Positions 6,150 to 55,213 of a stretch of 64,000 nucleotides of DNA are shown here, in pieces. Made by a program: the position numbers and the translations under genes. The number at the start of each line of letters is the position of its first letter. Position 1 is the first letter of the stretch. Origin of the DNA: an uncultured Acidobacteriota bacterium (GTDB taxonomy: Bacteria > Acidobacteriota > Terriglobia > Acidiferrales > UBA7541); assembly GCA_963761555.1 (NCBI GenBank), contig CAVXHD010000002.1, positions 51,622 to 115,621 of the forward strand, written 5' to 3'. The notes below the pieces were generated by a model. The model was not told the DNA's origin, made no database searches, and was given only the letters and a program-made list of their open reading frames with translations.

Positions 6150-6179
6150 AATTGGGGGGTGATACTACCGAGCTGGAGG

Positions 6180-12122: not shown

Positions 12123-13355
12123 TCAAACCCTTGCTGGTTGGCCGACTGGTAAAGGAGTCTCAGTAACCTTTCCAAACCGCGCGATCTCCTCAACCACCCG
12201 CTCTTGCTGCGCTAGGCTCAAGCCCGGATACACTGGCAAGGACAGTATTTGTGCAGCTGCGTCCTCCGTTACAGGGAAATCTCCCTCCTTATATCCCATA
12301 GCGCGATAAGGCTTTTGGAGATGGACAGGAATCGGGTAGTGGATTCCCGTTCCGATGCCGGATTGAGTCAGATGATTTTGGAGTTCGTCTCGCTCCGAGG
12401 TGCGGACTACGTACAGGTGATAGACGGCACGGGACCAAGATGGCTCGAATGGCAGCGCTAGCCAAGTCGACATGTGGCTCAACAATTCGTTGTAACGTGC
12501 CGCGACTTCTCGGCGTTTTTGATTCCACTGAGCTAGATGATGGAGTTTGACCTGCAGTATCCCAGCTTGGATGGAGTCAAGCCGCCCGTTGTAACCTTCC
12601 ATCTCATGGTAGTATTTGCGCGACTGCCCGTGATCTCGAAGCATTCGAGTTATCTGCGCGAGTGCTTCGTTGTTTGTCGTGATGGCTCCAGCCTCTCCGC
12701 AGGCGCCAAGGTTTTTCCCTGGATAAAAACTGAAAGCCGCGGCATGACCCATCGAACCTGCCTTCCTCCAGCGGTTTTCCTTTTTTGAGAAGTACTCCGC
12801 GCCGTGTGCTTGGCAGGCGTCTTCGATTACGATCATTCCGTAGCGAGAAGCAATGTCCAGGATTGGATCCATGTCAGCCATTTGCCCGTATAGATGAACA
12901 GGGACCACGGCCGTCACTGGCCTCCCAAGCGTCCGGTGAATCATTCGGCCCGTTTCGGCGTCCTTCATACAATATCTCTCGAAATACTGAGCGAGTTTCT
13001 GTGGATCCATGGTGTACGTGCGTGCGTCCACGTCCACAAAGTCTGCTCTAGCGCCAGACTGCGAAATGGCTTCTGTGGTGGCAATAAACGTCAGAGGAGT
13101 GGTCAGAACAATGTCGCCTGGTCGAACCCCGGCAGCCATCAAAGCGAACCTGACGGCGTCTGTGCCGCTGGATACCCCAACACAATGCGTGGCTTCGCAG
13201 AAGGAAGCGAATTCAGTTTCGAAACCCTCGACCATAGGCCCACCGATGAAGCCCGCGGTCTGCAACGCCTTCCGAAATACGGGGATCAATTCCGGCTCGA
13301 GCTCCTGGTGAAGACTGGCCAAATCCAAAAATGGAACTTTCTGGTTGTCGGTCAT
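12123..13355 (-). CDS. DegT/DnrJ/EryC1/StrS-family PLP-dependent sugar aminotransferase
   Basis: 410 aa. FIGGPMVEGFETEFASF, VSSGTDAV and the PLP-Lys region FSFYPGKNLGA. Confidence 0.85.
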   Translation of the reverse strand: MTDNQKVPFLDLASLHQELEPELIPVFRKALQTAGFIGGPMVEGFETEFASFCEATHCVGVSSGTDAVRFALMAAGVRPGDIVLTTPLTFIATTEAISQSGARADFVDVDARTYTMDPQKLAQYFERYCMKDAETGRMIHRTLGRPVTAVVPVHLYGQMADMDPILDIASRYGMIVIEDACQAHGAEYFSKKENRWRKAGSMGHAAAFSFYPGKNLGACGEAGAITTNNEALAQITRMLRDHGQSRKYYHEMEGYNGRLDSIQAGILQVKLHHLAQWNQKRREVAARYNELLSHMSTWLALPFEPSWSRAVYHLYVVRTSERDELQNHLTQSGIGTGIHYPIPVHLQKPYRAMGYKEGDFPVTEDAAAQILSLPVYPGLSLAQQERVVEEIARFGKVTETPLPVGQPARV

Positions 13356-13423
13356 TAGGCGATCCTTATTTTGAAGTGGGAGTGCACTTAATTTTTGCGT
13401 CTACTGCGGGAAGCAAGCAGCCA

Positions 13424-14311
13424 CTAGCTAAAAACCTCGTGAGAAACTAGCCTGGTTCTCTCCTCTAAATACTTCTGAAGGCCTTCTTGCCATGGTGCGA
13501 ACAAATTCAAACCGCAGGCTTTCAAAGCACGGTTCTCGAGGACGGAGTACTTAGGCCTCGCCACCTTTGCGGGGAATTCCCCGGGGGCGGCGACTTTTAG
13601 CCGCACGGATGCGCCGGTCAGGGCAAAGATTTCGCGCGCGAATTCATACCACGAACAACTGCCTTCAGCGGTTGCGTGATAGAGCCCGTAACAATCCGAA
13701 TGACTCAACCGGACAATCTGCCGCGCAAGTTCCGCGGTGGGCGTCGGCGTAACTACCTCGCTGTCCACAACGCGCAGCTCTTCGCGTTCCTTCGCCAACT
13801 TCAACATGAGCTCAACGAAGTTCAGCCCGCCCTTGGCGCGGCAGGGACTTTTCCCGTAGAGGGCGGAGGTGCGAATCACAAAGTGCTTGTCCGTCGTCGA
13901 GCGGATAAAGTGTTCGCCAGCTAGCTTGCTGATGCCGTAGGAATTCAGCGGCCGTGGGGTGTCATCTTCAACGTAAGGACTCCCCTTGCCGCCGTCGAAC
14001 ACATAGTCGGTGCTGACGTGGACCAGGGCTGCACCCAAATCTCGTCCGACCACTGCTAGGTTCCTTGCGCCGAGTGCATTGACGGCGAACGCTTTCGCAG
14101 GGTCGCTTTCGCAATGGTCGACGTTGTGCATCGCGGAAGTGTTGACGATCAGCTGAGGCTGAATTTCCCCAAGAACTCGCTTGACCGAACCAAGCTCGGC
14201 CGTCTCAATATCCGAGTGCGTCAACGCGGAAACGGGATCACCGCTCTCCGAGAAAGCGATAACCACGTCGCTGCCTAGCTGCCCATTTGCTCCAATCACC
14301 GCAACCCTCAT
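13424..14311 (-). CDS. rmlD: dTDP-4-dehydrorhamnose reductase (RmlD family)
   Basis: 295 aa. MRVAVIGANGQLGSDV Rossmann motif, STDYVFDG, YGISKLAGE (YxxxK). Confidence 0.75.
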   Translation of the reverse strand: MRVAVIGANGQLGSDVVIAFSESGDPVSALTHSDIETAELGSVKRVLGEIQPQLIVNTSAMHNVDHCESDPAKAFAVNALGARNLAVVGRDLGAALVHVSTDYVFDGGKGSPYVEDDTPRPLNSYGISKLAGEHFIRSTTDKHFVIRTSALYGKSPCRAKGGLNFVELMLKLAKEREELRVVDSEVVTPTPTAELARQIVRLSHSDCYGLYHATAEGSCSWYEFAREIFALTGASVRLKVAAPGEFPAKVARPKYSVLENRALKACGLNLFAPWQEGLQKYLEERTRLVSHEVFS

Positions 14312-14313
14312 AA

Positions 14314-15303
14314 TTAGAGCGCCTTCGCCATGGAGTGAATTTCAACGCCGTTGTCAATCGATTTGAAAACGGAAATATTGGAATACGCTGGATTATCCCA
14401 ATCCTGAAACTTGTCCATGTTTTCGATCAAGTTCACTACGATGGATTTGAGATCGTCCGTAGGATGAAAGCTCAGAACATTTTTTGCCTTCTCGATGCTG
14501 ACTTTGTAATTTCGAAAATCCTGGATATGCTTGATGATGAGGCGAATTGAAATTCCCAACTTCTCCTCAATCGCGCCTTTAACCAGGTCGCCGACTTCTC
14601 CGACCGTGTAATTGCCGGAGGCGACGTTGAAAACTCCAGAAATTTTGTGATTCGCTTCGATCGCGCGAATGTAGGCTGTAGCTGCATCCTGGATGCTCAA
14701 AATGGGCCTCCAGATGGACGGGTTGTTGATCGTGATCGAGCGATCTCTCATGGCGCTCTTAAACATCGTGTTTATGATGAGATCGAATCGCATACGCGGG
14801 CTATAGCCAGAGATCGTCCCCTTGCGTAAGGAAATCACGGAAAAATTTTCGTCGATCAGCTGCAGAGCGGCTTGTTCACCTTGTAACTTGGAAATGCCGT
14901 ACGGGTAGCTGGAGCTCACCGGGCGGGTCTCGTCGTACAGCTCGTTCTCCGTATACCCGTATACGGAGCAAGAACTCGCGTATACGTAGCGTTTCACCTT
15001 TGCCTTTTTGGCTGTATAAGCCAGATAGGACGGCGCGGCGGCGTTGAATACGAAGTTTTTGCTCGGCGAGTATTCAGCCATAGGGTCGTTGGACAGTCCT
15101 GCCAAGAAGACGACCTGATCGTAGGGCTCCAGATCTTCCTCCGTGAGCTGGAAGATGTCCTTGTTCAGAATTCCCACTTGGCGAGGCAAGTGATTGCCGA
15201 ACCAGAAGAGGTCTACAACATCCACTTTGTAGCCGCGGTCGAGCAATTTGGGAATCAGCGTGCTCCCAACGTACCCTGCGCCGCCAGCAATGAGGAGTTT
15301 CAT
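14314..15303 (-). CDS. NAD-dependent epimerase/dehydratase (extended SDR)
   Basis: ORF trimmed to MKLLIAGGAGYVGS (ATG at 15303). Catalytic YGISKLQGE. Confidence 0.8.
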   Translation of the reverse strand: MKLLIAGGAGYVGSTLIPKLLDRGYKVDVVDLFWFGNHLPRQVGILNKDIFQLTEEDLEPYDQVVFLAGLSNDPMAEYSPSKNFVFNAAAPSYLAYTAKKAKVKRYVYASSCSVYGYTENELYDETRPVSSSYPYGISKLQGEQAALQLIDENFSVISLRKGTISGYSPRMRFDLIINTMFKSAMRDRSITINNPSIWRPILSIQDAATAYIRAIEANHKISGVFNVASGNYTVGEVGDLVKGAIEEKLGISIRLIIKHIQDFRNYKVSIEKAKNVLSFHPTDDLKSIVVNLIENMDKFQDWDNPAYSNISVFKSIDNGVEIHSMAKAL

Positions 15304-15333
15304 GGTTTCTCCCGTAAGCCTCAAGAGTTTCGA

Positions 15334-15900
15334 TCAGTAACTGAAATTTTCGGATTCTGGCCGCGACAGCCACTCTGCTAGGGTCTGCGCGTTTCGATCT
15401 TTGTCCGAGAGCAAGGGCTCTCGGATGGGCCACTCGATACCGATGGCAGGATCATCCCACCGAATCCCGGATTCCCCTTTGTTGCTGTAAATTCCTGTGC
15501 ACTTGTACTGGATTTCAGCGGCATCGGATAGCACGCAGAAACCACGTGCAAAGCCGGCCGGAGCCCAAACTTGACGACGGTTCTCAGCCGATGCCTCAAC
15601 TCCAACCCACTTTCCCAGCGTGGGTGATCCCCGGCGAACATCAACGGCAACCAGCAAAGCGGTCCCGTGAGTTACACGCATTAACTTGCCCATCGGGGGT
15701 TCCCATTGAAAGTGCAAACCGCGCACAACACCCTTCGAGGACCGCGAGTGGTTGTCCTGGACAAAATGGGTGGGCAATCCGAAGGCTTGAAATTGATCCT
15801 CGCGGAACGTCTCCATGAAGAAGCCGCGGTCGTCTTGAAAAATATTCGGGACCAGTACAACCACGTCCCGCAAGTATCTAGACTCGATTTTGATTTCCAT
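15334..15900 (-). CDS. rmlC: dTDP-4-dehydrorhamnose 3,5-epimerase (RmlC cupin)
   Basis: 188 aa. DDRGFFMETFRED and VRGLHFQ motifs. Confidence 0.85.
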   Translation of the reverse strand: MEIKIESRYLRDVVVLVPNIFQDDRGFFMETFREDQFQAFGLPTHFVQDNHSRSSKGVVRGLHFQWEPPMGKLMRVTHGTALLVAVDVRRGSPTLGKWVGVEASAENRRQVWAPAGFARGFCVLSDAAEIQYKCTGIYSNKGESGIRWDDPAIGIEWPIREPLLSDKDRNAQTLAEWLSRPESENFSY

Positions 15901-16018
15901 GGCTAATCAATCGCTAGCGACAACCCGAAGAGAGTTTTACTTCTCGCCTGTCCGGAAGGACCACCGCCGGCCTATCTCCCACATTCCGAGGTCGTGTACC
16001 CGGAGGATCTCATACGTT

Positions 16019-16528
16019 TCATTTCTGAACTTTTCCTACAATATTCGAGTCTAAAGGAATTTTGCGAAGCACCCTGGCCGGATTTCCGGCAACGATTGTC
16101 GCCGGCGGAACGTCGCGCGTTACCACCGAACCAGCTCCGACGATTGCGTTCTCGCCTATGATCAAGTTTGAGAGGATCGTGGCTCCCGAGCCGATGGATG
16201 CCCCTTTCCTCACTACTGTTTTTTCAACCTTCCAATCTTTCTCGGTCTGCAACTCTCCACCCGGATTCGTGGACCGAGGGTAGGTATCGTTGATGAAAGT
16301 AACGCCGTGTCCGACGAACACGTCGTCCTCAATGATTACACCTTCGCAAATGAAGGTATGTGAGGAAATCTTACAGTTACTACCGACTTCCGAGTTCTTC
16401 TGAATCTCGACGAAGGCGCCAATTTTCGTGTTATCGCCAATCTCGCAACCATAAAGATTGACGAACTTAGAAAGTCGAACACCTTCTCCCAACTTTACGT
16501 CTTGTGAGATGCAACAATATTCGTTCAC
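16019..16528 (-). CDS. sugar N-acetyltransferase, left-handed beta-helix (hexapeptide repeat)
   Basis: 169 aa. Hexapeptide repeats IGDNTKIGAFVEI and IGSGATILSNLIIGENAIVGAGSVV. 4-nt overlap with the upstream gene. Confidence 0.8.
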   Translation of the reverse strand: MNEYCCISQDVKLGEGVRLSKFVNLYGCEIGDNTKIGAFVEIQKNSEVGSNCKISSHTFICEGVIIEDDVFVGHGVTFINDTYPRSTNPGGELQTEKDWKVEKTVVRKGASIGSGATILSNLIIGENAIVGAGSVVTRDVPPATIVAGNPARVLRKIPLDSNIVGKVQK

Positions 16529-17526
16529 AGGCGCACGATCTCCCCTCTTTTCTTGATGGACTTCTCCGCCGCCTCAAGCATTTCTACGACGCGCAGTCCG
16601 GCGTGGCCGTCATTGACGGGTGTCTCGTTCTTGTTGATGCATTCCGCAAAATAGCTGAGTTCAGAGCGTAGCGCTTCCACTTGCTCGATCTGCGGGGACC
16701 ACATGTCTCCGGAGCGGTAATTTACGAGGAGCTGCCGAACACCGTCAGCGGAGGTGATATCAACTCCCTTGTCGTACACCTTAATCTTCTCGTCTGCTTC
16801 GAGATCATTCCAAACCAGCATCTTCTTCTGGCCGCCAATGAGTGTCGTGCGCACCTTGACGGGAGACAGCCAATTCACGTTGACGTGCGCTATCACATTC
16901 TGCGGGAAATACAGAGTGATATAAGCAATGTCCTCATGACCATTAAGATGGCACTGCCCTGTGGCTACTACAGCCTCCGCTCGTTGATCGATAATAAAAT
17001 CCATGATGGATAGGTCATGCGGAGCTAGATCCCAGATCACATTTACGTCGTGTTGGAACAAGCCAAGGTTTACGCGGACAGAATCGTAATAGTAGAGATC
17101 CCCGAGGACACCTTTTTTCATCAGCTCCTGAATTTTGCGAACCGCCCCGGTGAATAAAAACGTATGATCCACCATGATTTTCAATTTCTTGCGCTCGGCC
17201 AATTCAATCAGCTCTGAAGCTTGCGCGGAATTTGAAGTGAAGGGTTTCTCGACAAACACATGCTTCCCGTTTTCGAGCGCCTTCTTGGCAAGTTCGTAGT
17301 GCGTCCAAACCGGCGTTATCACGGCCACTGCATCCACGTTTGGCGATCGCAGAATCTCCTCTGGATCCTCGACTGTGGAGATTCCAGGATGAGCGCGCCT
17401 TAGACGCCCCAGGGCTGAGGCACTCTTGTCGCACACCGCTTCCACTTTCGTTCCTTCCAGGGAAGCAAAATTCCGCACGATATTTGGACCCCAATAACCG
17501 TACCCAAGCACACCAACTCGAATCAT
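16525..17526 (-). CDS. Gfo/Idh/MocA-family sugar-nucleotide oxidoreductase (WbpB/WlbA-like)
   Basis: 333 aa. MIRVGVLGYGYWGPN Rossmann motif and VFVEKPF. Confidence 0.85.
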   Translation of the reverse strand: MIRVGVLGYGYWGPNIVRNFASLEGTKVEAVCDKSASALGRLRRAHPGISTVEDPEEILRSPNVDAVAVITPVWTHYELAKKALENGKHVFVEKPFTSNSAQASELIELAERKKLKIMVDHTFLFTGAVRKIQELMKKGVLGDLYYYDSVRVNLGLFQHDVNVIWDLAPHDLSIMDFIIDQRAEAVVATGQCHLNGHEDIAYITLYFPQNVIAHVNVNWLSPVKVRTTLIGGQKKMLVWNDLEADEKIKVYDKGVDITSADGVRQLLVNYRSGDMWSPQIEQVEALRSELSYFAECINKNETPVNDGHAGLRVVEMLEAAEKSIKKRGEIVRL

Positions 17527-17731: not shown

Positions 17732-18994
17732 TCAATATGCTCCTTCGCCGGTCAGCACTGCCCGCGGCGTGGCCATAAGAATCTTCACATCGAGCCAGAG
17801 AGACCAGGATTGGCTGTAGCGAAGATCGAGCCGAACCATATCATCGAAGCTCATGCGGCTTCGGCCGCTGACCTGCCAAAGACCGGTTACACCTGGCTTC
17901 ACTTCGAGAACCCGGCGACGATGCCAGATATTATAGATTTTGAATTCGTATGGCACTGGTGGTCTTGGTCCAACGAGGGACATTTCACCACGCAAAACGT
18001 TCCAGAACTGCGGCAGTTCATCGAGGCTTGTCTTGCGCAGAAATTTCCCGACCGACGTCACCCGAGGGTCGTTGGTAATCTTAAAGACAGTGGGCTTGCC
18101 TTCCGCGTTCGGAACGCTCTCCCCCTGTCCAGCAATAAACTTTGCGATGTAGTCTTGATGGATTTTCGGATTGTTGTCCACGTACATCGTTCGGAATTTG
18201 AAGCATTGAAAACGGGAACCGAATTGAGCCAGCCGCGCCTGCCTGAAGAATACAGGTCCTTTGGATGTGAGTTTTATCGCCAAGGCGATTAAACCGTAGA
18301 TTGGAGAAAGAGAAAGAAGCAGCAGTGCGCTACCTAATACGTCGATCGCTCTCTTCAACAAGTGAGGTATCCGTTTTCCCCGCTCCTTCTCTGACACGTC
18401 GGGATAAAGGCTGATATCGGCCAGGGGGTCGGAGCTGTTTTCATCCTTGTCCTCTGGGAACAGATGTATCGAGGTTCGAAGATGGGAAAGCAAATTCCGA
18501 TCCAATTCCTTCTGCAGAGCAGCGAGCACTTTGGAATGCAAGATCTCGGTGATCGAAGTCTCGCCCTCGCAGTTGATCTCGGTGAACAATACAGCAAGAA
18601 TCTGACCCTCTTTGTACCAGCCGACCAAATCCGTTTCCCTGGTGGAGCGGGAGAGCACCGAGACCACCCATTCCATAAATGGTCCTGCGTTGCCGTTCGC
18701 TGGAAGTGCTGCTGCATCCAAAAGTAGTAGAACGAATGGTTTACCGGATCGCTCTGCTCTCCTCCGCTCGAGCGTCAGGAGCGTCTGAAAGCTATCCTCT
18801 CGCAGGACCCCCTCGCGGCGAACAATCACATGTCCCAAGCGAAGGGGACGATGACGCTCTTCGGAACGTCTCGGTGTCTGACCATGTATTGCCAGGACAT
18901 TCTGTGTCGTCTTTTCCATGTGCGTTCTCAGCTCTTGGTCTTTCCTAAGCATCGAGTTCCTTCTAACCTTCGAAGCAGAACTTCCTCGGCCCAC
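17732..18994 (-). CDS. polyprenyl-phosphate sugar phosphotransferase (bacterial sugar transferase) with N-terminal degenerate GGDEF-like domain
   Basis: 420-aa ORF. The C-terminal half is a canonical Bac_transf domain ([40 protein letters not shown]). The N-terminal ~60-185 aa align by eye to the GGDEF fold, with KEGQI in place of GGDEF and RETD as the RxxD site. Start candidates are GTG 18994, ATG 18952 and ATG 18919. Confidence 0.85.
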
Positions 18995-19046: not shown

Positions 19047-19619
19047 TCAGGCGACCACTCGCTTCAGCGACTGGGGAGCCACAAGAGAATTAAGAAAAGA
19101 TCCGCGCTCCGTACGTACGGGACAGATCATGGATCGATCTACTTCGAGGGCAACCGACCGACGCAGAAGGGACACAGAAAGTACTAGCCGCTGGCTGCCT
19201 TTGAAATTGATCAAAATTCCCTCTAGCCCTCCCCAAGCGGAGTCTTCTAGCCGAACTTTTTGGCCCACTTCTAGATATGGCCATGGCTCCACCGGTGCCC
19301 CAATCGAGATCGCATTTTGAATGGCCTCGATTTCGGAGTTCTCAACGGGGACAGGAACCCTCCCGGTCCCTACTACAGCCATCACTCCAGGCGTAACTAG
19401 AACGGGTAAACGATTTTGTGCGTCGAAATGGCAAAACACGTAGCCTGGGAAGAGCGGCGCACTGAAATCTTTATGCTTGCCCCTGAGAAGCCTTTTGGCC
19501 CTATACGTCGGGAGAAGAGTCTGATAGCCCTTTCCTGATAGGAGAGTCGAGGTGGAACTCTCCCACCGGGTCCTGACTTGAAGCGCAAACCAGCGTTCGT
19601 GACTGATTTCAGCGTTCAT
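19047..19619 (-). CDS. NusG-paralogue transcription antiterminator (RfaH/UpxY/LoaP-like)
   Basis: 190 aa. NGN-like RWFALQVRTRWE...PLFPGYVFCHFD and KOW-like GQKVRLEDSAWGGLEGILINFKG. It is the first gene of the EPS gene string. Confidence 0.8.
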   Translation of the reverse strand: MNAEISHERWFALQVRTRWESSTSTLLSGKGYQTLLPTYRAKRLLRGKHKDFSAPLFPGYVFCHFDAQNRLPVLVTPGVMAVVGTGRVPVPVENSEIEAIQNAISIGAPVEPWPYLEVGQKVRLEDSAWGGLEGILINFKGSQRLVLSVSLLRRSVALEVDRSMICPVRTERGSFLNSLVAPQSLKRVVA

Positions 19620-20505: not shown

Positions 20506-21372
20506 GTGCTCTTTAGCGGATGGATCATATTCACTTCGCTCTTATTCGCACAACAGTTGCTCAGGCTGGTCCGGCTAGCCATGTCCAACCCGGACGCTTC
20601 CCATCTCATCCTGATCCCCTTTCTCGCCGCCGGCTTGTTCTATATCGAGCGGCGCTGCATTTTCCGCACCCTATCAACGAATGTGGGCTTTGGCACTCTG
20701 CTAGTAGCAATTGGAGTTGGACTGGTTGTCGGCACACGGCTGGCTGGCCAAGCCCTGACGCCCGATATTGAACTTACGGGCTATATTTCCGCGCTCGTCT
20801 TGTTTTGGACTGCTGGATTTTCCTTCTTCTTCGGAGGAGCGGCTTTGAAAGCGGCCCATTTCCCTTTGCTCTTTCTTTGGTTAATGGTTCCTCTGCCGGA
20901 CTTTCTCCTGCAGCGAATCATCTATCTGTTGCGGGTTGGCTCGGCCGATATCACGGGGGCTCTTTTTGACCTTCTTGGAGTTCCGGCGCTGAGGGAGGGC
21001 TTCGTTTTTCACCTTGCCCAGGTAAACATAGAAATAGCGAAGGAATGCAGCGGCATTCGGTCAAGCATGGCGCTTTTCGTCTTGGCGTTGCCGGTGGTGC
21101 ATTTCGGGCTGCGTCGTTTTTGGAAAAAAATTCTTTTCCTATTTTTCGCGCTCCTCATGATGATCCTGAAAAATGGCATCCGCATCGTCACCCTGACGGT
21201 GCTGGCGATCTACGTGGACCCGGCATTCCTTCACGGGAGCCTTCACCGCGATGGTGGTGTAGTTTTTTTCCTTTTAGGAATGCTGCTCTTGCTACCCGTT
21301 TATCTCTTATTGCAAGAGCAAACGCCTAAGTTGCCAGAAGCGGAGCTCGCTACCTCCACAAACCCGAGGTAA
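20506..21372 (+). CDS. exosortase (EpsH/Xrt family transpeptidase)
   Basis: 288 aa, GTG start, polytopic hydrophobic protein. Exosortase catalytic contexts IAKECSGIRS (Cys), LKNGIRIVT (Arg) and FLHGSLHRDGG (His). Confidence 0.85.
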   Translation: MLFSGWIIFTSLLFAQQLLRLVRLAMSNPDASHLILIPFLAAGLFYIERRCIFRTLSTNVGFGTLLVAIGVGLVVGTRLAGQALTPDIELTGYISALVLFWTAGFSFFFGGAALKAAHFPLLFLWLMVPLPDFLLQRIIYLLRVGSADITGALFDLLGVPALREGFVFHLAQVNIEIAKECSGIRSSMALFVLALPVVHFGLRRFWKKILFLFFALLMMILKNGIRIVTLTVLAIYVDPAFLHGSLHRDGGVVFFLLGMLLLLPVYLLLQEQTPKLPEAELATSTNPR

Positions 21373-21463: not shown

Positions 21464-22378
21464 TTACCGGTCCGAATTCGCTCCATAGGAGTTCGCGTAA
21501 TATTGTCCGTACATGGCCTCAGGACCTACCCCGTTTAGCACCACTCCTATCAGATTTTTGCCCTCGAACTCGGCCGCTGCTCTTGAGACAACCTCGAACT
21601 CGCTGATTCCCGCCCTGACCACAAAGAGTGTCCCATCGCAAAAATCCGCTAATAAGCTGGGATCATGCACTGGAATCGCTGGCGGGGAGTCCAGAATCAC
21701 GTAATCAAACACTGGCGTCGCGAGGTCCAGTAGGCGCTTCATTCTCTCGCTCATAAGAAGTTCACTTGGATTTGCGACCTCGCCGCCGCCCGGGATCAAA
21801 CACAGATTTTCATCTGGCCCGCTCTGAATTACGGAGTACTCGTCGGCTTCCCCACGCAGGTATTCCGTCAATCCGGGCTTTCGCGGGGCGCCGAACGCCA
21901 AATGGAGCCGTGACGCCCGCAGATCCGCATCAATCAGGAGTACGCGCCGATCGGGCTGTCGAATAATGGACGAAGCCAGATTCGCGGCGACGAATGTCTT
22001 GCCCTCTGCGGGGACGCTACTGGTCACTAGGATGCGTTTCAACGGGCGCGTGCTGGCAATCTGATGCAATCGTGAACGTAGAGTGCGAAAACTCTCGGCT
22101 CCGCTTTTCTCTTTATCCGTGTCATTAAATATGCTCATGCGCGGGTCGGGTTTCCAACTGGGGTGAGAACAACGTTTAATCAGCTCCTTGAAGAGGAGTT
22201 GATGCTGGGTTTCCAGCCGTCGAACATCGCTCGGCGCAGTCTGTTGAGCCGTGTCGCTGAGTTCTGCAAGCCGAGGCAGATCTCCTTCGACATCCAAGAA
22301 ATCTTGGGCTGAACCGACGGCCCCTCGCGAAGTCTTTTCCTCCGCGGCCTTCTTCAAAGCGTCATGAATCCTGCTCAT
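21464..22378 (-). CDS. BY-kinase (CpsD/CapB/EpsG-like tyrosine autokinase)
   Basis: 304 aa. Walker A VPAEGKTFVAANLA, LLIDADLR, and a C-terminal Tyr cluster MYGQYYANSYG. Confidence 0.85.
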   Translation of the reverse strand: MSRIHDALKKAAEEKTSRGAVGSAQDFLDVEGDLPRLAELSDTAQQTAPSDVRRLETQHQLLFKELIKRCSHPSWKPDPRMSIFNDTDKEKSGAESFRTLRSRLHQIASTRPLKRILVTSSVPAEGKTFVAANLASSIIRQPDRRVLLIDADLRASRLHLAFGAPRKPGLTEYLRGEADEYSVIQSGPDENLCLIPGGGEVANPSELLMSERMKRLLDLATPVFDYVILDSPPAIPVHDPSLLADFCDGTLFVVRAGISEFEVVSRAAAEFEGKNLIGVVLNGVGPEAMYGQYYANSYGANSDR

Positions 22379-22412
22379 GGTCTCCCTTCAGCCCAGGACT
22401 AATCCCCGCGCA

Positions 22413-33833: not shown

Positions 33834-34859
33834 TCAATCCGCGGAAGGGTGAGAAGAGCTCGCTTGTGGAGCAGCCGCGTACCTCGAGCGTCTGGTAATA
33901 AAGCCGGCGTCACGAATCTTATAGATGAGTGTGCGATAGCTGATCTTCAGCGTCTCGGCAGTCTTGCGACGGTTCCATTGATTCGCCTGCAGCGCCTCGA
34001 GTATCAAATTCCTCTCCCGCTCGCGCACGGCATCCTTCGCAATCTGTTTGAGCGAGGCGCTTCCCTCGCCATTTGCGTTCGTCCGCGACGGGGGCGGACG
34101 TCTGGGAAATGTTCCGTCAAGAATTTTGGCGTCCGCGCCGATCAACACATGCCGCGCGATGCCGTTGGCCAGCTCGCGGATATTTCCCGGCCATTCCAGG
34201 TTTTGCAAATATTGCAGCGTCTCCTTGCTCAACGGTTCCGCTCGCTTTTCGTACTTCTCCTCGTAAAGTGCGCGGAAGTATTCCGCCAGCGAAGGTATGT
34301 CCTCTCTCCGTTCGCTCAGACGTGGCAGCTTCATGCGCACTACGTGTATCCGGTAATACAAATCGGCGCGAAACGTTCCCGCTTCGATTTCTTTCTGCAA
34401 GTCCTTGTTGGTGGCGCAAATAAGGCGCGTTTCAACTAGCTTTTCTTCGCCGCCGCCGATTCGCGAGAAGCGCCCATCCTGCAGGAAATGGAGGAGCTTG
34501 CTTTGCAGTCCCCCATCCAAATCCGCGATCTCATCGAGAAACAGAGTTCCGTTGTGCGCCAGCTCGACCCTTCCGGGCTTCGATGCGTGCGCCCCGGTAA
34601 ACGCGCCCTTCTCATAACCGAAAAGCTCGCTCTCCAGCAAAGTTCCCGGGATCGCCGCGCAGTTCACCTTCACGAACTGCCCGTTGCAGTTCGACGACTG
34701 CCTGTGGATCCATCGCGCCAGAACCTCTTTGCCGGTTCCGCCATCGCCCTGTAGAAGCACAGGGACATTTGTAGCGCAAACCTTCAAGGCGCGTTGCCGC
34801 ACCTCGGCCATGACTGCGGATCGCCCGAATAGCAGGTCATCCGGTGGCAGCAAATCCAC
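33834..34859 (-). CDS. sigma-54-dependent transcriptional activator lacking a receiver domain (AAA+ plus Fis-type HTH)
   Basis: 341 aa. Begins directly at the AAA+ module (LLFGRSAVMAEV, GDGGTGKEV Walker A). GAFTGA loop (EKGAFTGA). C-terminal HTH RKTAETLKISYRTLIYKI. Confidence 0.85.
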   Translation of the reverse strand: MDLLPPDDLLFGRSAVMAEVRQRALKVCATNVPVLLQGDGGTGKEVLARWIHRQSSNCNGQFVKVNCAAIPGTLLESELFGYEKGAFTGAHASKPGRVELAHNGTLFLDEIADLDGGLQSKLLHFLQDGRFSRIGGGEEKLVETRLICATNKDLQKEIEAGTFRADLYYRIHVVRMKLPRLSERREDIPSLAEYFRALYEEKYEKRAEPLSKETLQYLQNLEWPGNIRELANGIARHVLIGADAKILDGTFPRRPPPSRTNANGEGSASLKQIAKDAVRERERNLILEALQANQWNRRKTAETLKISYRTLIYKIRDAGFITRRSRYAAAPQASSSHPSAD

Positions 34860-34934
34860 CGGTTCGGTCCCCGCGCCTTTTCGAGATCTTTCCAGAATCC
34901 CTCTCCTGTCCCATTACTAGCTCCAAGGAAGGAT

Positions 34935-34950
34935 TGCATTCGGCAGGCCA
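34935..34950 (-). promoter_or_regulatory. sigma-54 type -24/-12 promoter candidate upstream of the receiver-less activator
   Basis: The minus strand reads TGGCCTGCCGAATGCA, with correct GG-N10-GC spacing. It lies about 75-90 nt upstream of the start at 34859. Confidence 0.35.
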
Positions 34951-35226
34951 CCGCCATCTCCAGGCAGAGATCCCATCAAACTCCCTGACCCTAAGTTAAA
35001 GTGTTTGTTTATCGACGTTTACGTAGAATCTACGAGGTTCGGTCATAGTACTGCATCTATAAGGAGGCCTTGCCCGAGAGGGTCCAAAGTGACAAAAGGT
35101 ATCCCGACTTTGATAACGATTTTCTCTATTTGCCTTGGTGGGGAAAAGTGATTAAGACCCGATTTCAAGCGAACAACAGTGGTCCTTAGAGCTTGGCGAA
35201 CAAGAATCGGCGCCGCAAGCCGACCT

Positions 35227-35565
35227 TTACGCTCTCGCACCTTCAGCTCGGATGATGTCATAGCGTTCTATCACGGCTGCGACTCCCATCCGCTCTGTGC
35301 CGTCCTCTGTGCGGTGCTCCACCCGCACGACCTTTCCGAACGCGCGAACAAATACTCCGCTCCCGCGCGTTATTTCTGCGGGCAAAGTCAATGTGATATC
35401 CAATTCCGAACCCGCCTCCATATCTTGATCGATCACGAAATACAACCCTCGCGTCGAGATGTCTCTCGTTTTTCCCTCTTGTGAATCGTCCTGGTGTTCG
35501 GCGGGTACTCGAATGATGACTGGCAAGGACAAATCATAACGACGAGCCGTTCGGCGTTCCGTCAT
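35227..35565 (-). CDS. PilZ-domain protein
   Basis: 112 aa. RRTARR (RxxxR) and DISTRG (DxSxxG) motifs at canonical spacing. Confidence 0.75.
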   Translation of the reverse strand: MTERRTARRYDLSLPVIIRVPAEHQDDSQEGKTRDISTRGLYFVIDQDMEAGSELDITLTLPAEITRGSGVFVRAFGKVVRVEHRTEDGTERMGVAAVIERYDIIRAEGARA

Positions 35566-35722
35566 TCCCCCGACCTCCCAAGTTTGCGGCGATGACGTGC
35601 TTTGAACCGCGCTGCCGGTCTGTGAACTTACTAGAAATCAATCAACTTTGCCAGTCCCGCACCCATCGCGTCCAGAAATAACGGGAAGCTCCGAAAGCCC
35701 CAGTTCCAAACTGCTGAAACTC

Positions 35723-37162
35723 CTATTCAGTCCGCGTTCCGACCGTCGCCGGCGCTTCCGCCGCTGCCGGAGCGGCCGCCGTACGCCGCGTACGTGGGGT
35801 ATCCAGGTTAAACTGCCGCATCTTATAGAGCAGCGCCTTGTAGCTGATTCCCAGCATCTTCGCGGCGTCCTTGCGGCACCACCGCGTTTTCTCCAAGGCG
35901 TCCGCGATCGCTTCCATTTCTGCCTCATCCTTCAATCCGCGGACGAGCGCCTTCAGTCCCTGCTCTCGCGGCGGCGCAGGCTCTTCACGCGGCGAAGTCC
36001 GCTGCCTTGCGGAAGACATCTCCACCAGTTCCCGCAAGCTGCCTTCGTCATCTTCCAGAATGACGTAGCGTTTCACGAAGTTTTCCAGCTCGCGCAAATT
36101 GCCAGGCCACGGATAATTTACCGCTGCATCCAACAAATACTTCGATGGCCCTGCCGGCGTCTTCCCGAATTTCTCGCTGTACTCCTCGAGAAAGTGCCGG
36201 AACAACAGCGGAATCTCCACCAGCCGCTCGCGCAGTGGCGGCACCAAAATCGAAAGCACATTCAGCCGGTAATACAAATCCTCGCGAAACCGTCCCGTCT
36301 TCATTGCCTCTTGCACGTCCACGTTGGTCGCCGCGAGCACCCGCACATCCGTATCGATCAGGTGCCTTCCTCCCAGCCTCGAATATTGGTGATCCTGCAG
36401 CACGTGAAGCAATTTGGCCTGCAACGGCGTGGTCATCTCCGCGATTTCATCCAGGAAAATCGTCCCTTTGTTCGCCATTTCAAATTTGCCTGGCTTGCTC
36501 CGGATCGCGCCCGTGAACGCTCCCTGTTCAAACCCGAACAGCTCCGACTCCAGCAGCTCCCCGGGCAACGCCGCGCAATTCACTTTCACGAATGGCTGAT
36601 TCCGCCGCTTCGAGCGCAGGTGAATCATCCGCGCCACGACTTCTTTTCCCACTCCGCTCTCCCCGCAAATAAAAACGGGCACATCCACTGGGGCAATCTG
36701 CAAAATCTGCTGGCGGATACGCACCATTTGCGGGCTGGCCGCCAAAAAACTCAGGTCTTCCGTCACTTGGTCGCAGTAATCGCGCAGCGCTTTGTTTTCC
36801 GTCGTGAGCTGCTTCTTCTGCCGCGACTTCAGCATCGCCGCATCCAGCTCCGTCTTTTCGAAGGGCTTCGTCAGGTAGTCGTGCGCTCCGATCCGGATCG
36901 CCTCCACCACTGTGCCCACTTCATTCGAACACGACAGCATGATTACGTTCAGGCTGCGGTCCACCTGCATCAGCTCCTTCAACGTCTCGATCCCGTTTAG
37001 CTCGGGCATCAAAACATCCAGAATGATGAAGTCCGGCCGCTCTCCACCGTTCACTTTGGCGATGGCTTCCCGTCCGGAGCTGACCGTCTCCACCTCGAAT
37101 CCATCCACCTCGAGCAACGTTTGCAAATACTTTCGAATGCTCGGCTCATCATCTACAACCAA
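35723..37162 (-). CDS. NtrC-family sigma-54-dependent response regulator (PrsR-like)
   Basis: 479 aa, TTG start. Receiver VVDDEPSIR...DFIILDVLMP. AAA+ module GESGVGKEV with the GAFTGA loop (EQGAFTGA). C-terminal HTH AAKMLGISYKALLYKM. Confidence 0.9.
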   Translation of the reverse strand: MVVDDEPSIRKYLQTLLEVDGFEVETVSSGREAIAKVNGGERPDFIILDVLMPELNGIETLKELMQVDRSLNVIMLSCSNEVGTVVEAIRIGAHDYLTKPFEKTELDAAMLKSRQKKQLTTENKALRDYCDQVTEDLSFLAASPQMVRIRQQILQIAPVDVPVFICGESGVGKEVVARMIHLRSKRRNQPFVKVNCAALPGELLESELFGFEQGAFTGAIRSKPGKFEMANKGTIFLDEIAEMTTPLQAKLLHVLQDHQYSRLGGRHLIDTDVRVLAATNVDVQEAMKTGRFREDLYYRLNVLSILVPPLRERLVEIPLLFRHFLEEYSEKFGKTPAGPSKYLLDAAVNYPWPGNLRELENFVKRYVILEDDEGSLRELVEMSSARQRTSPREEPAPPREQGLKALVRGLKDEAEMEAIADALEKTRWCRKDAAKMLGISYKALLYKMRQFNLDTPRTRRTAAAPAAAEAPATVGTRTE

Positions 37163-37234
37163 GTATTCTTTCTTTAGCGACCATCGATTTCTCCCTTTGC
37201 CCTTACCAAATTCCTCAAAATCTAAGGGTACAAG

Positions 37235-38465
37235 CTATCCTTGATCCATCGGCAGCAAGAAAGTGAACTTGCTTCCCGTCTTCGGCTCGCTCTCCACCCA
37301 AATCTTTCCGCGATGCGCTTGAATCAGGCGCTTCGCAATCGCCAGCCCCAGTCCCATTCCGGAAGTGTTGCGGTCAACGCGCACAAAATCCTCGAAGATT
37401 TCCTGATGATGCTCCGCCGGTATCCCTCCGCCGGAGTCCGCCACGGAAACCTCGACGCTATTGGGCCGCGGCAGCCGGAATCGCCGCCGCTCTTCCACTG
37501 GCGCAACCGCCGCGACGCGACGCTCCCAGAAATGGGGAGCCGCTTTAAATGTCACTGTTCCTCCCGCAGGCGTATGTTTCAGCGAGTTATCCAAAAGATT
37601 CGCGGCTGCTTGTTGCACCTTTTGGTAATCGAACCGGAATGTCGCTATGGACGGATCGAAGCTCGCCTCCAGCTTTACACCCTTTCGCTGGAAAGCTTCC
37701 GACCAGCGTTTCGCCAGTTCTTCCAGGCAATCGCGAAGATCATTCTCTCGAAGCTGTAATACAAGTTTGCCGCTTTCCAGCGCGGAATAATTCAGGAACA
37801 TCGACACCAAGCGCACCAGCCGCTCACAGCTTTCCTTCGATTCCTCTAGAATGTCCCGCTGTTTGTCCGTCAAACGCCCTAGCGACCCCGTGAGCATCAA
37901 ATCGTAGTAACCCTTAATCACGGCAAGAGGCGTTTTCAATTCGTGCGCCGCAGACGCCAGAAACACCGTCTTCTGCCGGTTCACTTCCTGCAATTTCAGA
38001 TATGCTGCAAGCAAATTCCGGTACGTGATTTCTCGTTCCTGTAGCAGTTCCTGCACCGTGAGCTGCGTCGCTACCTCGGCGGCCGTCTCCCCCGTAGATA
38101 CCGTCTTCAAGCTGCACCAGCAAGCACCCCGGCTCTGGAATCCATTGAATTCGGGCGCGCGTCTTCTTCTCGCCCCGCGCCACGTCTACTTCCAGCTCGC
38201 GCTCGCCAGCGTCGATCTTTTGCGCTATCTCGCTGGGCTCAACCTTCAACAAGTCGTTGAAGAGATTCACTTGCTCGGAATCGCTCGGAGCATCCGCACC
38301 AAGAAACTGGCGCGCGGTGGCGTTCGACATCAGTAGCCGCCCGTCCCTTTCCGTGATCCAGATTGCTGTTTTTGCGGCGCTCAGGAGCGCACTCACGAGT
38401 CCCGCGGGCAAGGCGAGGACCTTCCGATGCTCAGGAGCTGTAAGGGGAGCAAGTATCCCACTCAT
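37235..38465 (-). pseudogene. cytoplasmic PAS sensor histidine kinase, frame broken between PAS and HisKA
   Basis: ORF 37914..38465 carries the PAS-like part (AIWITERDGRLLMSNATARQFLG ... CLLVQLED). ORF 37235..38110 carries the HisKA H-box SAAHELKTPL plus HATPase_c (DSGGGIP, GMGLGLAIAK). Removing one nt near 38101-38102 gives LLVQLEDVSTGETAAEV. Confidence 0.7.
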
Positions 38466-38695
38466 TTAGTGTGTTCGCCTCCCCAGGGTAACAGGAAAAC
38501 TTTTTCCCTAGCGGACTGCTCATGCTGGCAGAGGTGTCCAGGACTGTCAATGGCAAAAGCGTTCCATTTGCACATTTACGGAACCCAAGTGGCTAGACCG
38601 TGCACAAGACTAGGTGCGTCAAAAAATGTCGCTCTGAACTTGTCCATAATTCATTGAAAACAAAACTTGTTATTGCGTTCTTCGCACCCCAAATA

Positions 38696-38711
38696 TGGCA
38701 CTCGATATGCT
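38696..38711 (+). promoter_or_regulatory. sigma-54 type -24/-12 promoter candidate upstream of PilZ gene
   Basis: TGGCACTCGATATGCT, i.e. a perfect TGGCAC -24 box with GC at the correct -12 position. It ends 36 nt before the ATG at 38747. Confidence 0.45.
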
Positions 38712-38746
38712 CGTTCCCGTACTAGATCTCGGGTACTAAACCAACC

Positions 38747-39100
38747 ATGGCACACAGTGGTCTTCTGAAGGACGGTCAGCGCGTGGAGCCCTCTAACCTC
38801 AGACGGTCCCCTCGCATTCGTTTGCAAATGCCGGTCTTCTTGCGCGCTACGGACACCTCCGGTGTCGAATTCATCGAGCTCACCAAAACTCTCAATATTA
38901 GTGCCACGGGCACCTGCGTAGCATCTGCGCACATTCTCCGGCCCGAACAAATCGTCCACCTGACGATTCCCGCACCTTCCTCGGCAGCTTCAGGGGTCGT
39001 TCCCAGCGAGACCCCTCCCATTACCGCCAGGGTCCTCCGTCAGGATTCTGCGGGGGATATGCGGCTTTTTGGGCTGGAATTCCTCAAGCCACTTGAGTAA
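38747..39100 (+). CDS. PilZ-domain protein
   Basis: 117 aa. RRSPRIR (RxxxR) and NISATG (NxSxxG). Confidence 0.75.
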   Translation: MAHSGLLKDGQRVEPSNLRRSPRIRLQMPVFLRATDTSGVEFIELTKTLNISATGTCVASAHILRPEQIVHLTIPAPSSAASGVVPSETPPITARVLRQDSAGDMRLFGLEFLKPLE

Positions 39101-39277
39101 AGTGTTGCCTCTTTGAGAGACGGCTCGTCCCGGACCGGGTAAAAAGGTTACGTCGACTCGGACTGTTGTCGCGCCCATCTTTCAAGAAGTTGTTCTATAC
39201 TCAGCTTTTTCAAGGAGATAGTCAGGAACCAAGGTCACCCAGATGCGCCCCGGAGCCGGTCGACGCCCTTCTTTAAT

Positions 39278-39293
39278 TGGTCTTAGGCTTGCT
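39278..39293 (+). promoter_or_regulatory. sigma-54 type -24/-12 promoter candidate upstream of the GGDEF-PilZ gene
   Basis: TGGTCTTAGGCTTGCT, i.e. TGG-N8-TTGCT with correct spacing. It lies about 77 nt before the ATG at 39370. Confidence 0.35.
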
Positions 39294-39369
39294 CCTTATA
39301 GAAAGAGAAAGCAGTATGTGCTTTCCCCAAACCCCGCGGGGATAGGCTAGATTCAGGTGTAAACCGGAT

Positions 39370-40662
39370 ATGCCCAGCCCCGGCGCCCCTGCGCCCCCGC
39401 GCTTGCCGATTGAGGACTCTTATCTCGAGCTGCTCGCTGACACGCTCGAAAGCTTGGATATTCCTGCGCGCGGCCAGTTTCTGCAACGCTATTTCCGCAC
39501 CATCACCCATCTTGAACTTCGAGAAGCGCAGTGCGTGCAGCTTTGGGATGAGATGCTCACCCGCAGGCGCGAACTCAGCGAACACATGGAGCGGCAAATC
39601 TCCTTGAAAACGGCCCTTATGGATGTGCTTACTTCCGCTGGACTTTTCCGCGTTCCCATCCTCATCGAGTACGACGAACTCAAAAAACTCCAGTTGAACG
39701 CCGTCACGGATGCGCTCACCGGCCTCTACAACCGCCGTCTCTTTAGCGAATCCTTCGAAAAAGAGCTAAATCGTGCGCGCCGTTATGGCCAGCCTCTCGG
39801 CCTCGTCATTCTCGATTTGCACCGCTTCAAGGAAGTCAATGACAAGCACGGACATCCGCGTGGCGATGAAGTCTTGCGCGCTGCCGCCGCAACGCTGAAA
39901 AAAGCTCTCCGCACTTCGGACTCCGCCTTCCGCATCGGCGGCGACGAATTCGCTCTCCTGCTCCCCCAAACGGATGCCGCACAGGCCGTTGCGCTCAGTC
40001 GCCGCATCGGCACGGTCTTCAGCGAATCCATCACCCACTTCCAGATGGGCGTTAGCGTCAGCATGGATCACGGCGTCGCCACTTTTCCGCAGGACGGCGA
40101 ACAAGCCGATCAATTGATTCGTGTTGCGGATGAGCGCCTCTACCGGTTGAAACACGCAAATCACGGCAAAACTCCCGCCGCTGGTCCCCGCACGGAACTT
40201 GCCTCTAGTTCCGCTCCCGAGCCATCCTCTGCCTCCTCCGAGCACCAGCCCTCCGCTCCTCGACCTATCCCCTTCGAATCGAAGCGTCCGCCCGAAAAAT
40301 CCGAAGCCCATCTCGCTGCCGCCGCTTCCGCAACGGCTTCTGAAATCTCCGGCAACCAGGCTCTCGCCGTTCCAACGCCTGCCCATGTCTATCCCGTGGC
40401 ACGCAAAGCCGAGCGCGTCTCCATGACCGGCACAAATGCGTACGCCGTTCTCGGCGAACAGGGCGTTCGTCGCGCCCGCGTTTTGGATCTCGGTTTTGGT
40501 GGAGTTGCTCTCGAACTGGAATCGCACGAAGAAATTCCGGAAAGCATTCTCGCCGTTTTGCACGTGCCCATTCTTCCGCCAGTACGCGTCAATCTTAAGC
40601 CCGTGTGGACCCAGCGCAGCCAGCAAGGCATCTATCGCGTCGGCTGCGCCTTTGTCTCGTGA
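39370..40662 (+). CDS. diguanylate cyclase (GGDEF with I-site) fused to a C-terminal PilZ-like domain
   Basis: 430 aa. DALTGLYNRR, LDLHRFKEVNDKHGHPRGDEVL, and RTSD (RxxD) five residues before GGDEF (RTSDSAFRIGGDEFALLL). Low-complexity linker. The C-terminus carries RKAER and DLGFGG, a PilZ-like pair. Confidence 0.85.
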   Translation: MPSPGAPAPPRLPIEDSYLELLADTLESLDIPARGQFLQRYFRTITHLELREAQCVQLWDEMLTRRRELSEHMERQISLKTALMDVLTSAGLFRVPILIEYDELKKLQLNAVTDALTGLYNRRLFSESFEKELNRARRYGQPLGLVILDLHRFKEVNDKHGHPRGDEVLRAAAATLKKALRTSDSAFRIGGDEFALLLPQTDAAQAVALSRRIGTVFSESITHFQMGVSVSMDHGVATFPQDGEQADQLIRVADERLYRLKHANHGKTPAAGPRTELASSSAPEPSSASSEHQPSAPRPIPFESKRPPEKSEAHLAAAASATASEISGNQALAVPTPAHVYPVARKAERVSMTGTNAYAVLGEQGVRRARVLDLGFGGVALELESHEEIPESILAVLHVPILPPVRVNLKPVWTQRSQQGIYRVGCAFVS

Positions 40663-54013: not shown

Positions 54014-54177
54014 CGCCTCTTCCGTTCTGTCTATCGCGCAGCCCAAAATCTCTGGTGGACCGCCCCTCGCCGCCTCGCAGTATATCTCGCAACTATGCTG
54101 CTATCGCGCGATTCTGGCTTGCGGCCATTCATGCGCGCTAACGCAACGCAAGTTGCATCTGCAGTCCACGATCTGCG

Positions 54178-54549: not shown

Positions 54550-54550
54550 A

Positions 54551-55196: not shown

Positions 55197-55213
55197 CCTT
55201 ACGAGGTTTTTCC

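Follow-up and report, generated by a model that had tools for sequence, protein, structure and literature searches.

Results

The sensor-PGT gene and its features

We analyzed a window of 64,000 nucleotides (nt) from an uncultured Acidobacteriota bacterium (assembly GCA_963761555.1, contig CAVXHD010000002.1, positions 51,622 to 115,621 of the forward strand); all positions below are those of the window. On its minus strand the window carries an open reading frame (ORF) that joins a degenerate GGDEF-fold domain to a monotopic phosphoglycosyl transferase (PGT) within a locus for exopolysaccharide (EPS) synthesis. A first-pass annotation, made from the sequence by eye, had suggested that the N-terminal domain keeps the RxxD motif of the allosteric I-site and might be a built-in receptor for cyclic di-GMP (c-di-GMP). 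We refer to the gene as the sensor-PGT gene. Residues are numbered in the 420-amino acid (aa) version counted from the first GTG, unless the 395-aa numbering is named. Structure predictions were obtained with AlphaFold2 (AF2), whose local confidence is given as pLDDT (predicted local distance difference test). The gene comprises the following features:

17732..18994 (stop included), minus strand: sensor-PGT ORF, degenerate GGDEF domain and monotopic PGT, 420 aa from GTG
18815..18994, minus strand: N-terminal extension, residues 1-60, predicted to be disordered (AF2 pLDDT 30-60 and alignment)
18401..18805, minus strand: degenerate GGDEF-fold domain, residues about 64-198, ending in an AD..LYP remnant of the last helix (profile, AF2, Foldseek, hhalign)
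18746..18769, minus strand: E76-RRRAERS83, Arg-rich end of helix alpha1 (invariant in 76/76 sequences; GcbC alignment)
18710..18730, minus strand: L89-LLLDAA95, strand beta1 with D93 (profile alignment)
18629..18640, minus strand: R119-E-T-D122, RxxD in I-site register, on the loop that joins helix alpha2 to strand beta2 (alignment, conservation, AF2)
18599..18613, minus strand: K128-EGQI132, turn of the beta2-beta3 hairpin in place of GG(D/E)EF (profile alignment, AF2)
18380..18445, minus strand: flexible linker from the sensor to the membrane helix, residues about 184-205 (full-length AF2 prediction; pLDDT under 50 for residues 159-180, 395-aa numbering)
18266..18394, minus strand: re-entrant membrane helix-break-helix, residues about 201-243 (AF2 and sequence)
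17753..18355, minus strand: Bac_transf (PF02397) catalytic domain, residues 214-414 (Pfam, WbaP match, Foldseek)

The positions given in the first-pass annotation proved exact, nt 18440-18811 corresponding to residues 62-185 and nt 18629-18640 to R119-E-T-D122. All strings that it quoted were found in the ORF: ERRRAERS at residues 76-83, LLLLDAA at 89-95, RETD at 119-122 and KEGQI at 128-132. Translation probably starts at ATG 18952 or ATG 18919 rather than at the GTG, yielding a protein of 406 or 395 aa. An AGGA lies 7 nt upstream of ATG 18952, and ATG 18919 lines up with the N-termini of the homologues in the alignment. Most family members open with the short peptide MGN(S/T)YSRI at residues 1-10 (seen in P0006, P0011, P0015, P0048, P0054 and others), followed by some 40 disordered residues. 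The window protein departs from this peptide at its start, where it reads MEKTTQNV (window 18919-18994).

The N-terminal half has a divergent GGDEF fold

Single-sequence searches of the N-terminal domain remained below threshold. The Pfam GGDEF model (PF00990) matched with E=0.13 and 12.5 bits compared to a gathering cutoff of 23.8, and a search of the PDB returned the GGDEF domain of GcbC (5euh) at a likewise sub-threshold E=0.096. A family profile and structure prediction were therefore needed. Residues 15-208 used as query retrieved 125 homologues, and a profile was built from 51 of them. This profile matched the c-di-GMP-bound GGDEF domain of GcbC (5euh) with E=2.8e-5 and DosC (4zve) with E=9.7e-4, covering nearly the whole domain. 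When the 51 members were scanned singly, PF00990 matched 29 of them at E<=1 (best 2.3e-5), and no family besides GGDEF recurred in the N-terminal part.

The AF2 model calculated with the family alignment has a core pLDDT above 90 and the topology alpha-beta-alpha-beta-beta-alpha-beta, with helices at 52-69, 89-103 and 134-149 and strands at 73-79, 109-114, 118-123 and 159-165 of the model. The top 50 Foldseek matches of this domain model in the PDB are all GGDEF domains (best E=1.6e-6). The full-length model also matches PelD, both in the apo form (4dmz, E=7.2e-3) and in complex with c-di-GMP (4dn0, E=2.1e-2). An hhalign comparison with the diguanylate cyclase encoded in the same window extended over 124 columns (P=0.005, reported probability 7%, single-sequence template) and served for residue register only. 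Residues from about 64 to 198 are thus a true but divergent GGDEF-fold domain. The by-eye alignment of the first-pass annotation, which PF00990 alone places below threshold in the single sequence, is borne out by family profile, AF2 and Foldseek. A missing match to GGDEF-family models or structures had been named beforehand as the refuting outcome; matches were found on both sides, by the profile and by Foldseek.

The C-terminal half is a small monotopic PGT

The C-terminal half matches Bac_transf (PF02397) over residues 214-414 with E=2.8e-66, in agreement with the standard bacterial sugar transferase domain that had been assigned to it by eye. The catalytic Asp-Glu dyad lies in SLDELPQ (D325-E326, nt 18017-18022). 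Among solved proteins the PGT half is nearest to WbaP (E about 7e-46) and PglC (6e-30), and a Foldseek search with the full-length AlphaFold model likewise returned PglC (E=2.8e-12) as well as WbaP. The hydrophobic segment preceding the catalytic domain had been read as one transmembrane helix. It contains a Ser-Pro break (LSLSPI, at 229-232), and in the AF2 prediction a break separates two helices (176-203 and 205-218, 395-aa numbering), so the segment is instead the re-entrant helix-break-helix of the monotopic PGT fold. The re-entrant topology of PglC-type PGTs is summarized in PMC10942596. Since the segment is re-entrant and does not span the membrane, everything N-terminal to it, including the sensor domain, is cytoplasmic.

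Pfam and NCBIfam scans together with the AF2 model revealed no PF13727 match and no four-helix bundle or N-terminal transmembrane segments in the window protein. The NCBIfam models for WbaP, WcaJ and EpsZ match through their C-terminal 200 or so positions only and far under their cutoffs, and TIGR03025 scores 294 compared to a cutoff of 295.55 over positions 248-445 only. The window protein does not qualify as a large PGT of the WbaP or WcaJ type. As only the PGT core matches, without PF13727 or a four-helix bundle, it is a small PGT bearing an N-terminal extension. Judging from PF02397, the Asp-Glu dyad and the Ser-Pro re-entrant helix, the C-terminal half is a genuine PglC-type monotopic PGT.

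The cyclase site is lost and the RxxD motif is retained

In the N-terminal domain the DxD metal site reads D93-A-A, with the first Asp retained and the second gone. The FKxxND/GHxxGD substrate loop after strand beta1 is shortened by about 6 residues compared to GcbC, DosC and the cyclase of the window. The position of the GG(D/E)EF motif, KEGQI in the window protein, is variable in the family and never reads GGDEF in 260 sequences. With the GG(D/E)EF motif, the second metal Asp and the substrate loop lost, no cyclase activity is expected from the sequence. The dead cyclase site noted by eye (KEGQI, DAA) thereby extends to a degeneracy throughout the family.

Five residues (LVGWY) separate D122 from K128, exactly the spacing of an I-site RxxD from the GG(D/E)EF position, as in degenerate-GGDEF c-di-GMP receptors of the PelD, PopA, PssE and YdaK type. 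The family profile aligns RETD to RPAD of GcbC and RSSD of DosC, and hhalign aligns it to RTSD of the window's own cyclase. In the AF2 model RETD lies in the loop before strand beta2 and KEGQI on the beta2-beta3 turn, which is the canonical geometry. RxxDxxGW[Y/H] is present in 260 of the 262 family sequences. The proposal that an RxxD stands in I-site register is upheld by spacing, alignment and conservation. A bare RxxD is unremarkable: about 1.8 are expected by chance in the window protein and 2 are observed, so it is register and conservation that carry the argument.

We also aligned the window protein with 75 loci whose ORF extends at least 280 residues beyond the RxxD. In these 76 sequences, collected by a scan that partly favors the motifs concerned (see Discussion), the invariant residues of the N-terminal half include E76-RRRAERS83, R119, D122, G125, W126, L152, H177 and P180, and more are nearly invariant. 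W126, Y127 and Y197 stand out as almost invariant aromatics. Within the N-terminal half, conservation is strongest at ERRRAERS and R..D..GW. R79-A80 correspond in the alignment to the 'RA' of GcbC FRAQRSGKP; their counterpart in PleD is the secondary I-site residue R313.

The sensor-PGT fusion defines a large family

An HMM search of 1.84 billion representative sequences returned 3215 clusters (50% identity) at E<=1e-3, of which 1826 reached E<=1e-10. The matches stem almost all from metagenome-assembled genomes (MAGs) of Acidobacteriota. A scan of one genome per species yielded 191 genomes with matches, and the locus counts given here rest on the best 80 of their loci. These belong to Acidobacteriota MAGs (Terriglobia, Ca. 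Acidiferrales/Acidoferrum, gp2) and two bins labelled otherwise; the protein encoded at one of them (L004, OY970275.1) shows 98% identity to the window protein. Sensor and PGT are fused in at least 74 of the 80 loci. In nearly all fused loci the distance from the Arg of the RxxD to the C-terminus amounts to 300-304 residues, mostly 302, with a single outlier at 317. The fusion is therefore real and old, and the feature is not a singleton: it represents a large unannotated family. Public names for its members are 'LPS/colanic/teichoic acid glycosyltransferase', 'EPS polyprenyl glycosylphosphotransferase' and 'hypothetical protein', and two fragments are named 'GGDEF domain-containing' by JGI. 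A Pfam scan of ten longer or full-length members (392-905 aa) detected Bac_transf only, besides one unrelated N-terminal fusion.

Homologues of the N-terminal domain with 165-220 aa and no PGT had raised the idea of split genes or an artefact. Most of them are contig-end fragments, and the idea was rejected in view of the fused loci. Six of the 80 loci have no clearly intact fusion (L027, L016, L047, L077, L081 and L083). L016 is cut by a contig end. L027 (CAVVZY010000002.1), from a long-read MAG, has its genes for a NusG paralogue, the PGT, a GFO-type oxidoreductase and DegT in pieces, and its apparent stand-alone sensor ORF was discarded as an artefact of a frameshifted assembly with several broken neighbor genes. 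L047 has a 254-aa ORF with a separate PGT-domain match about 600 nt downstream. A genuine clade of stand-alone sensors of about 190 aa (187-192) comprises the P0048 cluster, L077, L081 and L083, as well as L001-L003 at 6001-6564. Its members sit in different polysaccharide loci (epimerase, SIS, RmlC/D, Wzz). In L083 relic PGT-like fragments follow the stop (4532-4749), which suggests loss of the enzyme half. Some homologues carry tandem degenerate GGDEF domains before the PGT (P0121 with 628 aa, P0132, P0137 and P0221), and both copies keep RxxD..GW.

The gene lies in an EPS locus

The sensor-PGT gene is the second gene of a minus-strand unit, after a NusG paralogue, as its earlier placement as second in an EPS operon had stated. 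The neighboring features are:

12123..17526, minus strand: downstream sugar-nucleotide genes (GFO/IDH/MocA oxidoreductase, hexapeptide acetyltransferase, dTDP-sugar genes, DegT aminotransferase)
19047..19619, minus strand: NusG paralogue, conserved first gene of the unit (PF02357, E=7.8e-17)
20506-21372, plus strand: exosortase (EpsH family), E=1.8e-43
21464-23966, minus strand: Wzz/GNVR co-polymerase and tyrosine-kinase-like ATPase, divergent from the exosortase gene

The NusG paralogue lies directly upstream of the sensor-PGT gene in 58 of the 80 loci (in L004-L083 at around 3300-3950), suggesting a dedicated UpxY/RfaH-like antiterminator for a long EPS operon. Among the downstream genes GFO/IDH/MocA, the hexapeptide N-acetyltransferase and DegT are kept in 42, 39 and 26 of 80 loci, respectively. 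They resemble a WbpB/WbpD/WbpE trio, which suggests that the polymer contains a 2,3-diacetamido sugar. Glycosyltransferases, an AsnB-like amidotransferase and a deacetylase are encoded further downstream. Upstream lie the Wzz-type co-polymerase, the tyrosine-kinase-like ATPase and the exosortase. Because the exosortase gene stands beside Wzz/GNVR and the kinase-like ATPase, we assign the locus to the exosortase/PEP-CTERM-associated kind of EPS loci. In the related loci Wzz is found in 51/80 and the tyrosine-kinase-like ATPase in 50/80. The conserved makeup of the locus consists of Wzz, tyrosine kinase, NusG paralogue, sensor-PGT gene and sugar-nucleotide genes.

Two ORFs inside the EPS operon, at 7068-9119 (minus strand, 683 aa) and 10730-11911 (minus strand, 393 aa), have no Pfam match and possibly encode the polymerase, the flippase or novel components. 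Elsewhere in the window, ORF 53732-56305 (plus strand, 857 aa) shows the release-factor domains PCRF and RF-1 at residues 509-818 only; the probable reason is either an ORF call extended too far in GC-rich sequence or a gene for release factor 2 that is regulated by frameshifting.

c-di-GMP signaling genes are encoded in the same window

About 15-20 kb from the sensor-PGT gene the window contains a cluster of c-di-GMP signaling genes, made up of a sigma-54 activator, a PilZ protein, a receiver-sigma-54 activator, a histidine kinase, a second PilZ protein and a GGDEF cyclase:

33834..40662, mixed strands: c-di-GMP signaling cluster
35230-35637, minus strand: PilZ protein 1
38726-39097, plus strand: PilZ protein 2
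39370-40662, plus strand: intact GGDEF cyclase with its own RTSD I-site motif, E=8e-44

The first-pass annotation had listed one GGDEF cyclase and three PilZ domains for the window. The cyclase was recovered, as were two of the PilZ domains; a third was not found in the window by motif search, phmmer or Pfam. From the intact cyclase and the two PilZ proteins we conclude that the organism makes and reads c-di-GMP.

Discussion

A possible c-di-GMP receptor inside the initiating PGT

We propose that the N-terminal domain acts as a built-in I-site receptor for c-di-GMP through which the initiation of a Wzx/Wzy-type EPS pathway is gated, a proposal which on the sequence evidence we consider evenly balanced. 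The PGT half, the C-terminal 200 residues, loads undecaprenyl phosphate with a sugar-1-phosphate, which commits the cell to the exosortase-associated Wzx/Wzy-type pathway as its first step. The GGDEF-fold sensor on the cytoplasmic side, tethered to the re-entrant helix of the PGT by a flexible linker of about 20 residues, would be held near the PGT active site. It may be a c-di-GMP receptor of the PelD, PssE or YdaK type that uses R119 and D122; we predict such binding by the domain with as much weight for it as against it. The Arg-rich helix (R77-R79, R82) is the counterpart of the element that supplies the secondary I-site in real cyclases. In PleD and WspR, c-di-GMP binds as intercalated dimers that connect the RxxD of a first domain with a helix-alpha1 Arg of a second. 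In the window protein c-di-GMP, probably as an intercalated dimer, would similarly hold together the RxxD and the Arg helix of two different domains, whereupon the sensor might dimerise or re-dock and PGT activity be altered. Since RxxD and Arg helix are both invariant and some homologues have two domains per chain, dimerisation or re-docking driven by the ligand is the most economical model. By analogy with other EPS systems the PGT would most probably be switched on at high c-di-GMP. In favor of the proposal speak, besides fold, register and conservation, the c-di-GMP genes of the window and the precedents for PGTs controlled by accessory domains or partner proteins (PMC10942596, PMC12802240). 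That c-di-GMP directly gates the committed, lipid-carrier-consuming Wzx/Wzy-type step through an I-site receptor inside the initiating PGT is a tentative claim, to which we lend slightly less than even credence. The analysis shows the fold and homology, the dead active site, the register and conservation of the RxxD, the fusion, the cytoplasmic placement of the sensor and the EPS context. What the ligand is, in which direction it acts and by what allosteric route are points that we infer and did not observe.

Several observations weigh against this proposal. The third Arg of the primary I-site, located in helix alpha3 and presumably equivalent to R390 of PleD and R402 of PelD, is replaced by I151 in the window protein and by I, T or V across the family, with R/H153 and K155 conserved in the same helix instead. 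GcbC has a His in this column, yet was crystallized with c-di-GMP, so the third Arg is not obligatory. An 'RAxRS.KP' helix is typical of ordinary GGDEF domains too, so that its conservation does not specifically point to a bound ligand. There is also some bias in the counts of conserved residues: the patterns with which genomes were scanned to collect the 76 sequences contained RETD and RRAxRS, which makes the invariance among them partly circular. The set from the profile search is less biased, and there the best 150 of the 3215 matches were inspected. The full-length AF2 model predicts no contact between sensor and PGT with confidence, its linker being disordered and its predicted template modelling score (pTM) 0.57. 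Finally, small PGTs have been reported to work as monomers (PMC12802240), so that switching by dimerisation would not be an obvious way to control them.

The incomplete I-site is shared evidence for two other explanations. The dead GGDEF domain might be a ligand-free scaffold, a dimerisation or docking module which recruits the PGT to its machinery (Wzz/BY-kinase, glycosyltransferases, the flippase or a cognate cyclase), with the invariant R, D and W forming a protein-protein interface or a structural salt bridge. Such partners are at hand, given the frequency of Wzz and of the tyrosine-kinase-like ATPase in the loci, and W126, Y127 and Y197 could be interface or phospho-acceptor residues. PGT regulation by partner proteins and by phosphorylation is known (PMC12802240, PMC10942596), and the dimer of WbaP is made by its accessory domain (PMC10942596). 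No partner is fused to the sensor or predicted for it, however, and the absolute retention of the RxxD while the catalytic hairpin drifts is the signature of the proven degenerate-GGDEF receptors. The GGDEF fold itself can dispense with the RxxD, which many GGDEF domains lack. We consider a pure scaffold unlikely, if still deserving of attention.

Alternatively the domain could sense another small molecule, such as guanosine triphosphate (GTP), (p)ppGpp, another cyclic dinucleotide, or uridine nucleotides and UDP-sugars, and thereby provide metabolic feedback. The accessory domain of unknown function (DUF) of WbaP offers a precedent, as it binds UMP, UDP and UTP, and UMP inhibits the enzyme (PMC10942596); the PDB entry 9g85 contains PleD with both c-di-GMP and ppGpp, and compared to PleD and PelD the I-site is incomplete. 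Against a different ligand stand the destruction of the GTP half-site, by deletion of the loop and loss of the GGDEF hairpin and the second Asp, and the fact that the surviving motif is the one that touches c-di-GMP in known structures. This explanation appears rather improbable to us. That the resemblance to GGDEF domains is a coincidence seen by eye, the N-terminal region being an unrelated or disordered extension, could be argued from the single-sequence Pfam result and from the chance expectation for a bare RxxD. The agreement of profile, hhalign, AF2 and Foldseek refutes this, and we regard it as extremely improbable.

Significance

Allosteric control by c-di-GMP is well documented for synthase-dependent systems, namely cellulose, alginate, Pel, poly-N-acetylglucosamine (PNAG) and Pss. 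For Wzx/Wzy-dependent pathways post-translational control has been described as poorly understood (PMC12802240). If our proposal is true, the second messenger acts at the step that commits scarce undecaprenyl phosphate, which gives a simple and testable throttling model. In that case the protein would also be the first second-messenger effector demonstrated among PGTs, and it would be shared, along with tandem and stand-alone derivatives, by a large clade of soil Acidobacteriota. It would also define a new effector class for the Acidobacteriota, abundant soil bacteria that are genetically hard to work with and whose EPS is relevant to soil aggregation. More than 3000 clusters known just as 'hypothetical protein' or 'sugar transferase' could be annotated with a domain that escapes standard Pfam scans.

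In full-text literature searches we came across neither a GGDEF-PGT fusion nor a PGT that binds c-di-GMP, the catalogue of PGT fusions by O'Toole et al. (2021, PNAS) lying outside their coverage. A 2024 PNAS paper on monoPGT annotation mentions neither GGDEF nor c-di-GMP. Since Pfam misses the domain, catalogues based on Pfam would probably miss the fusion too.

Comparison with known systems

PelD of the Pseudomonas aeruginosa Pel system binds c-di-GMP at its RxxD I-site and thereby turns on synthesis of the Pel polysaccharide. It resembles the window protein in being a membrane-anchored protein with a cytoplasmic degenerate GGDEF domain, and it is a structural match to the full-length model. 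PelD is a separate, non-catalytic subunit (transmembrane segments, GAF and GGDEF) of a synthase-type system, whereas the window protein has its sensor fused to the enzyme, contains no GAF domain, belongs to a Wzx/Wzy-type pathway and lacks the Arg equivalent to PelD R402.

Listeria PssE and Bacillus subtilis YdaK have a dead active site and an intact RxxD, are encoded in EPS operons and are needed for c-di-GMP-dependent EPS. Unlike the window protein they are stand-alone proteins acting on processive glycosyltransferase synthases instead of a PGT, and both come from another phylum, the Firmicutes. Direct c-di-GMP control of a polysaccharide enzyme is also known for BcsE, with its GIL (GGDEF I-site-like) domain carrying an RxGD motif, and for PgaCD, BgsA and HfsJ. 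All these cases concern synthases or ordinary glycosyltransferases, and none is a polyprenyl-phosphate PGT. Active cyclases of the GcbC, DosC, PleD and WspR type, which are subject to feedback through the I-site, give the best sequence and structure matches. They agree with the window protein in fold, in RxxD register and in the RAxRS helix, but have kept the GG(D/E)EF motif, the second metal Asp and the substrate loop that are missing from it.

On the enzyme side the comparison is with the large PGTs of the WbaP type, which have the same catalytic domain and a cytoplasmic N-terminal accessory domain regulating the enzyme. This accessory DUF (PF13727) senses nucleotides, including the reaction product UMP (PMC10942596). 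It is Rossmann-like and accompanied by a four-helix transmembrane bundle, unlike the GGDEF fold of the window protein with its presumed second-messenger ligand. In Myxococcus EpsZ is activated by phosphorylated EpsW (EpsW~P), and regulatory modules, receiver (REC) domains among them, can be fused to small PGTs (PMC12802240). In these cases, as we propose for the window protein, the PGT that initiates a Wzx/Wzy EPS pathway is controlled after translation by a signaling module; there a receiver domain, either fused to the PGT or acting in trans, is phosphorylated, whereas here the signal would be a cyclic dinucleotide.

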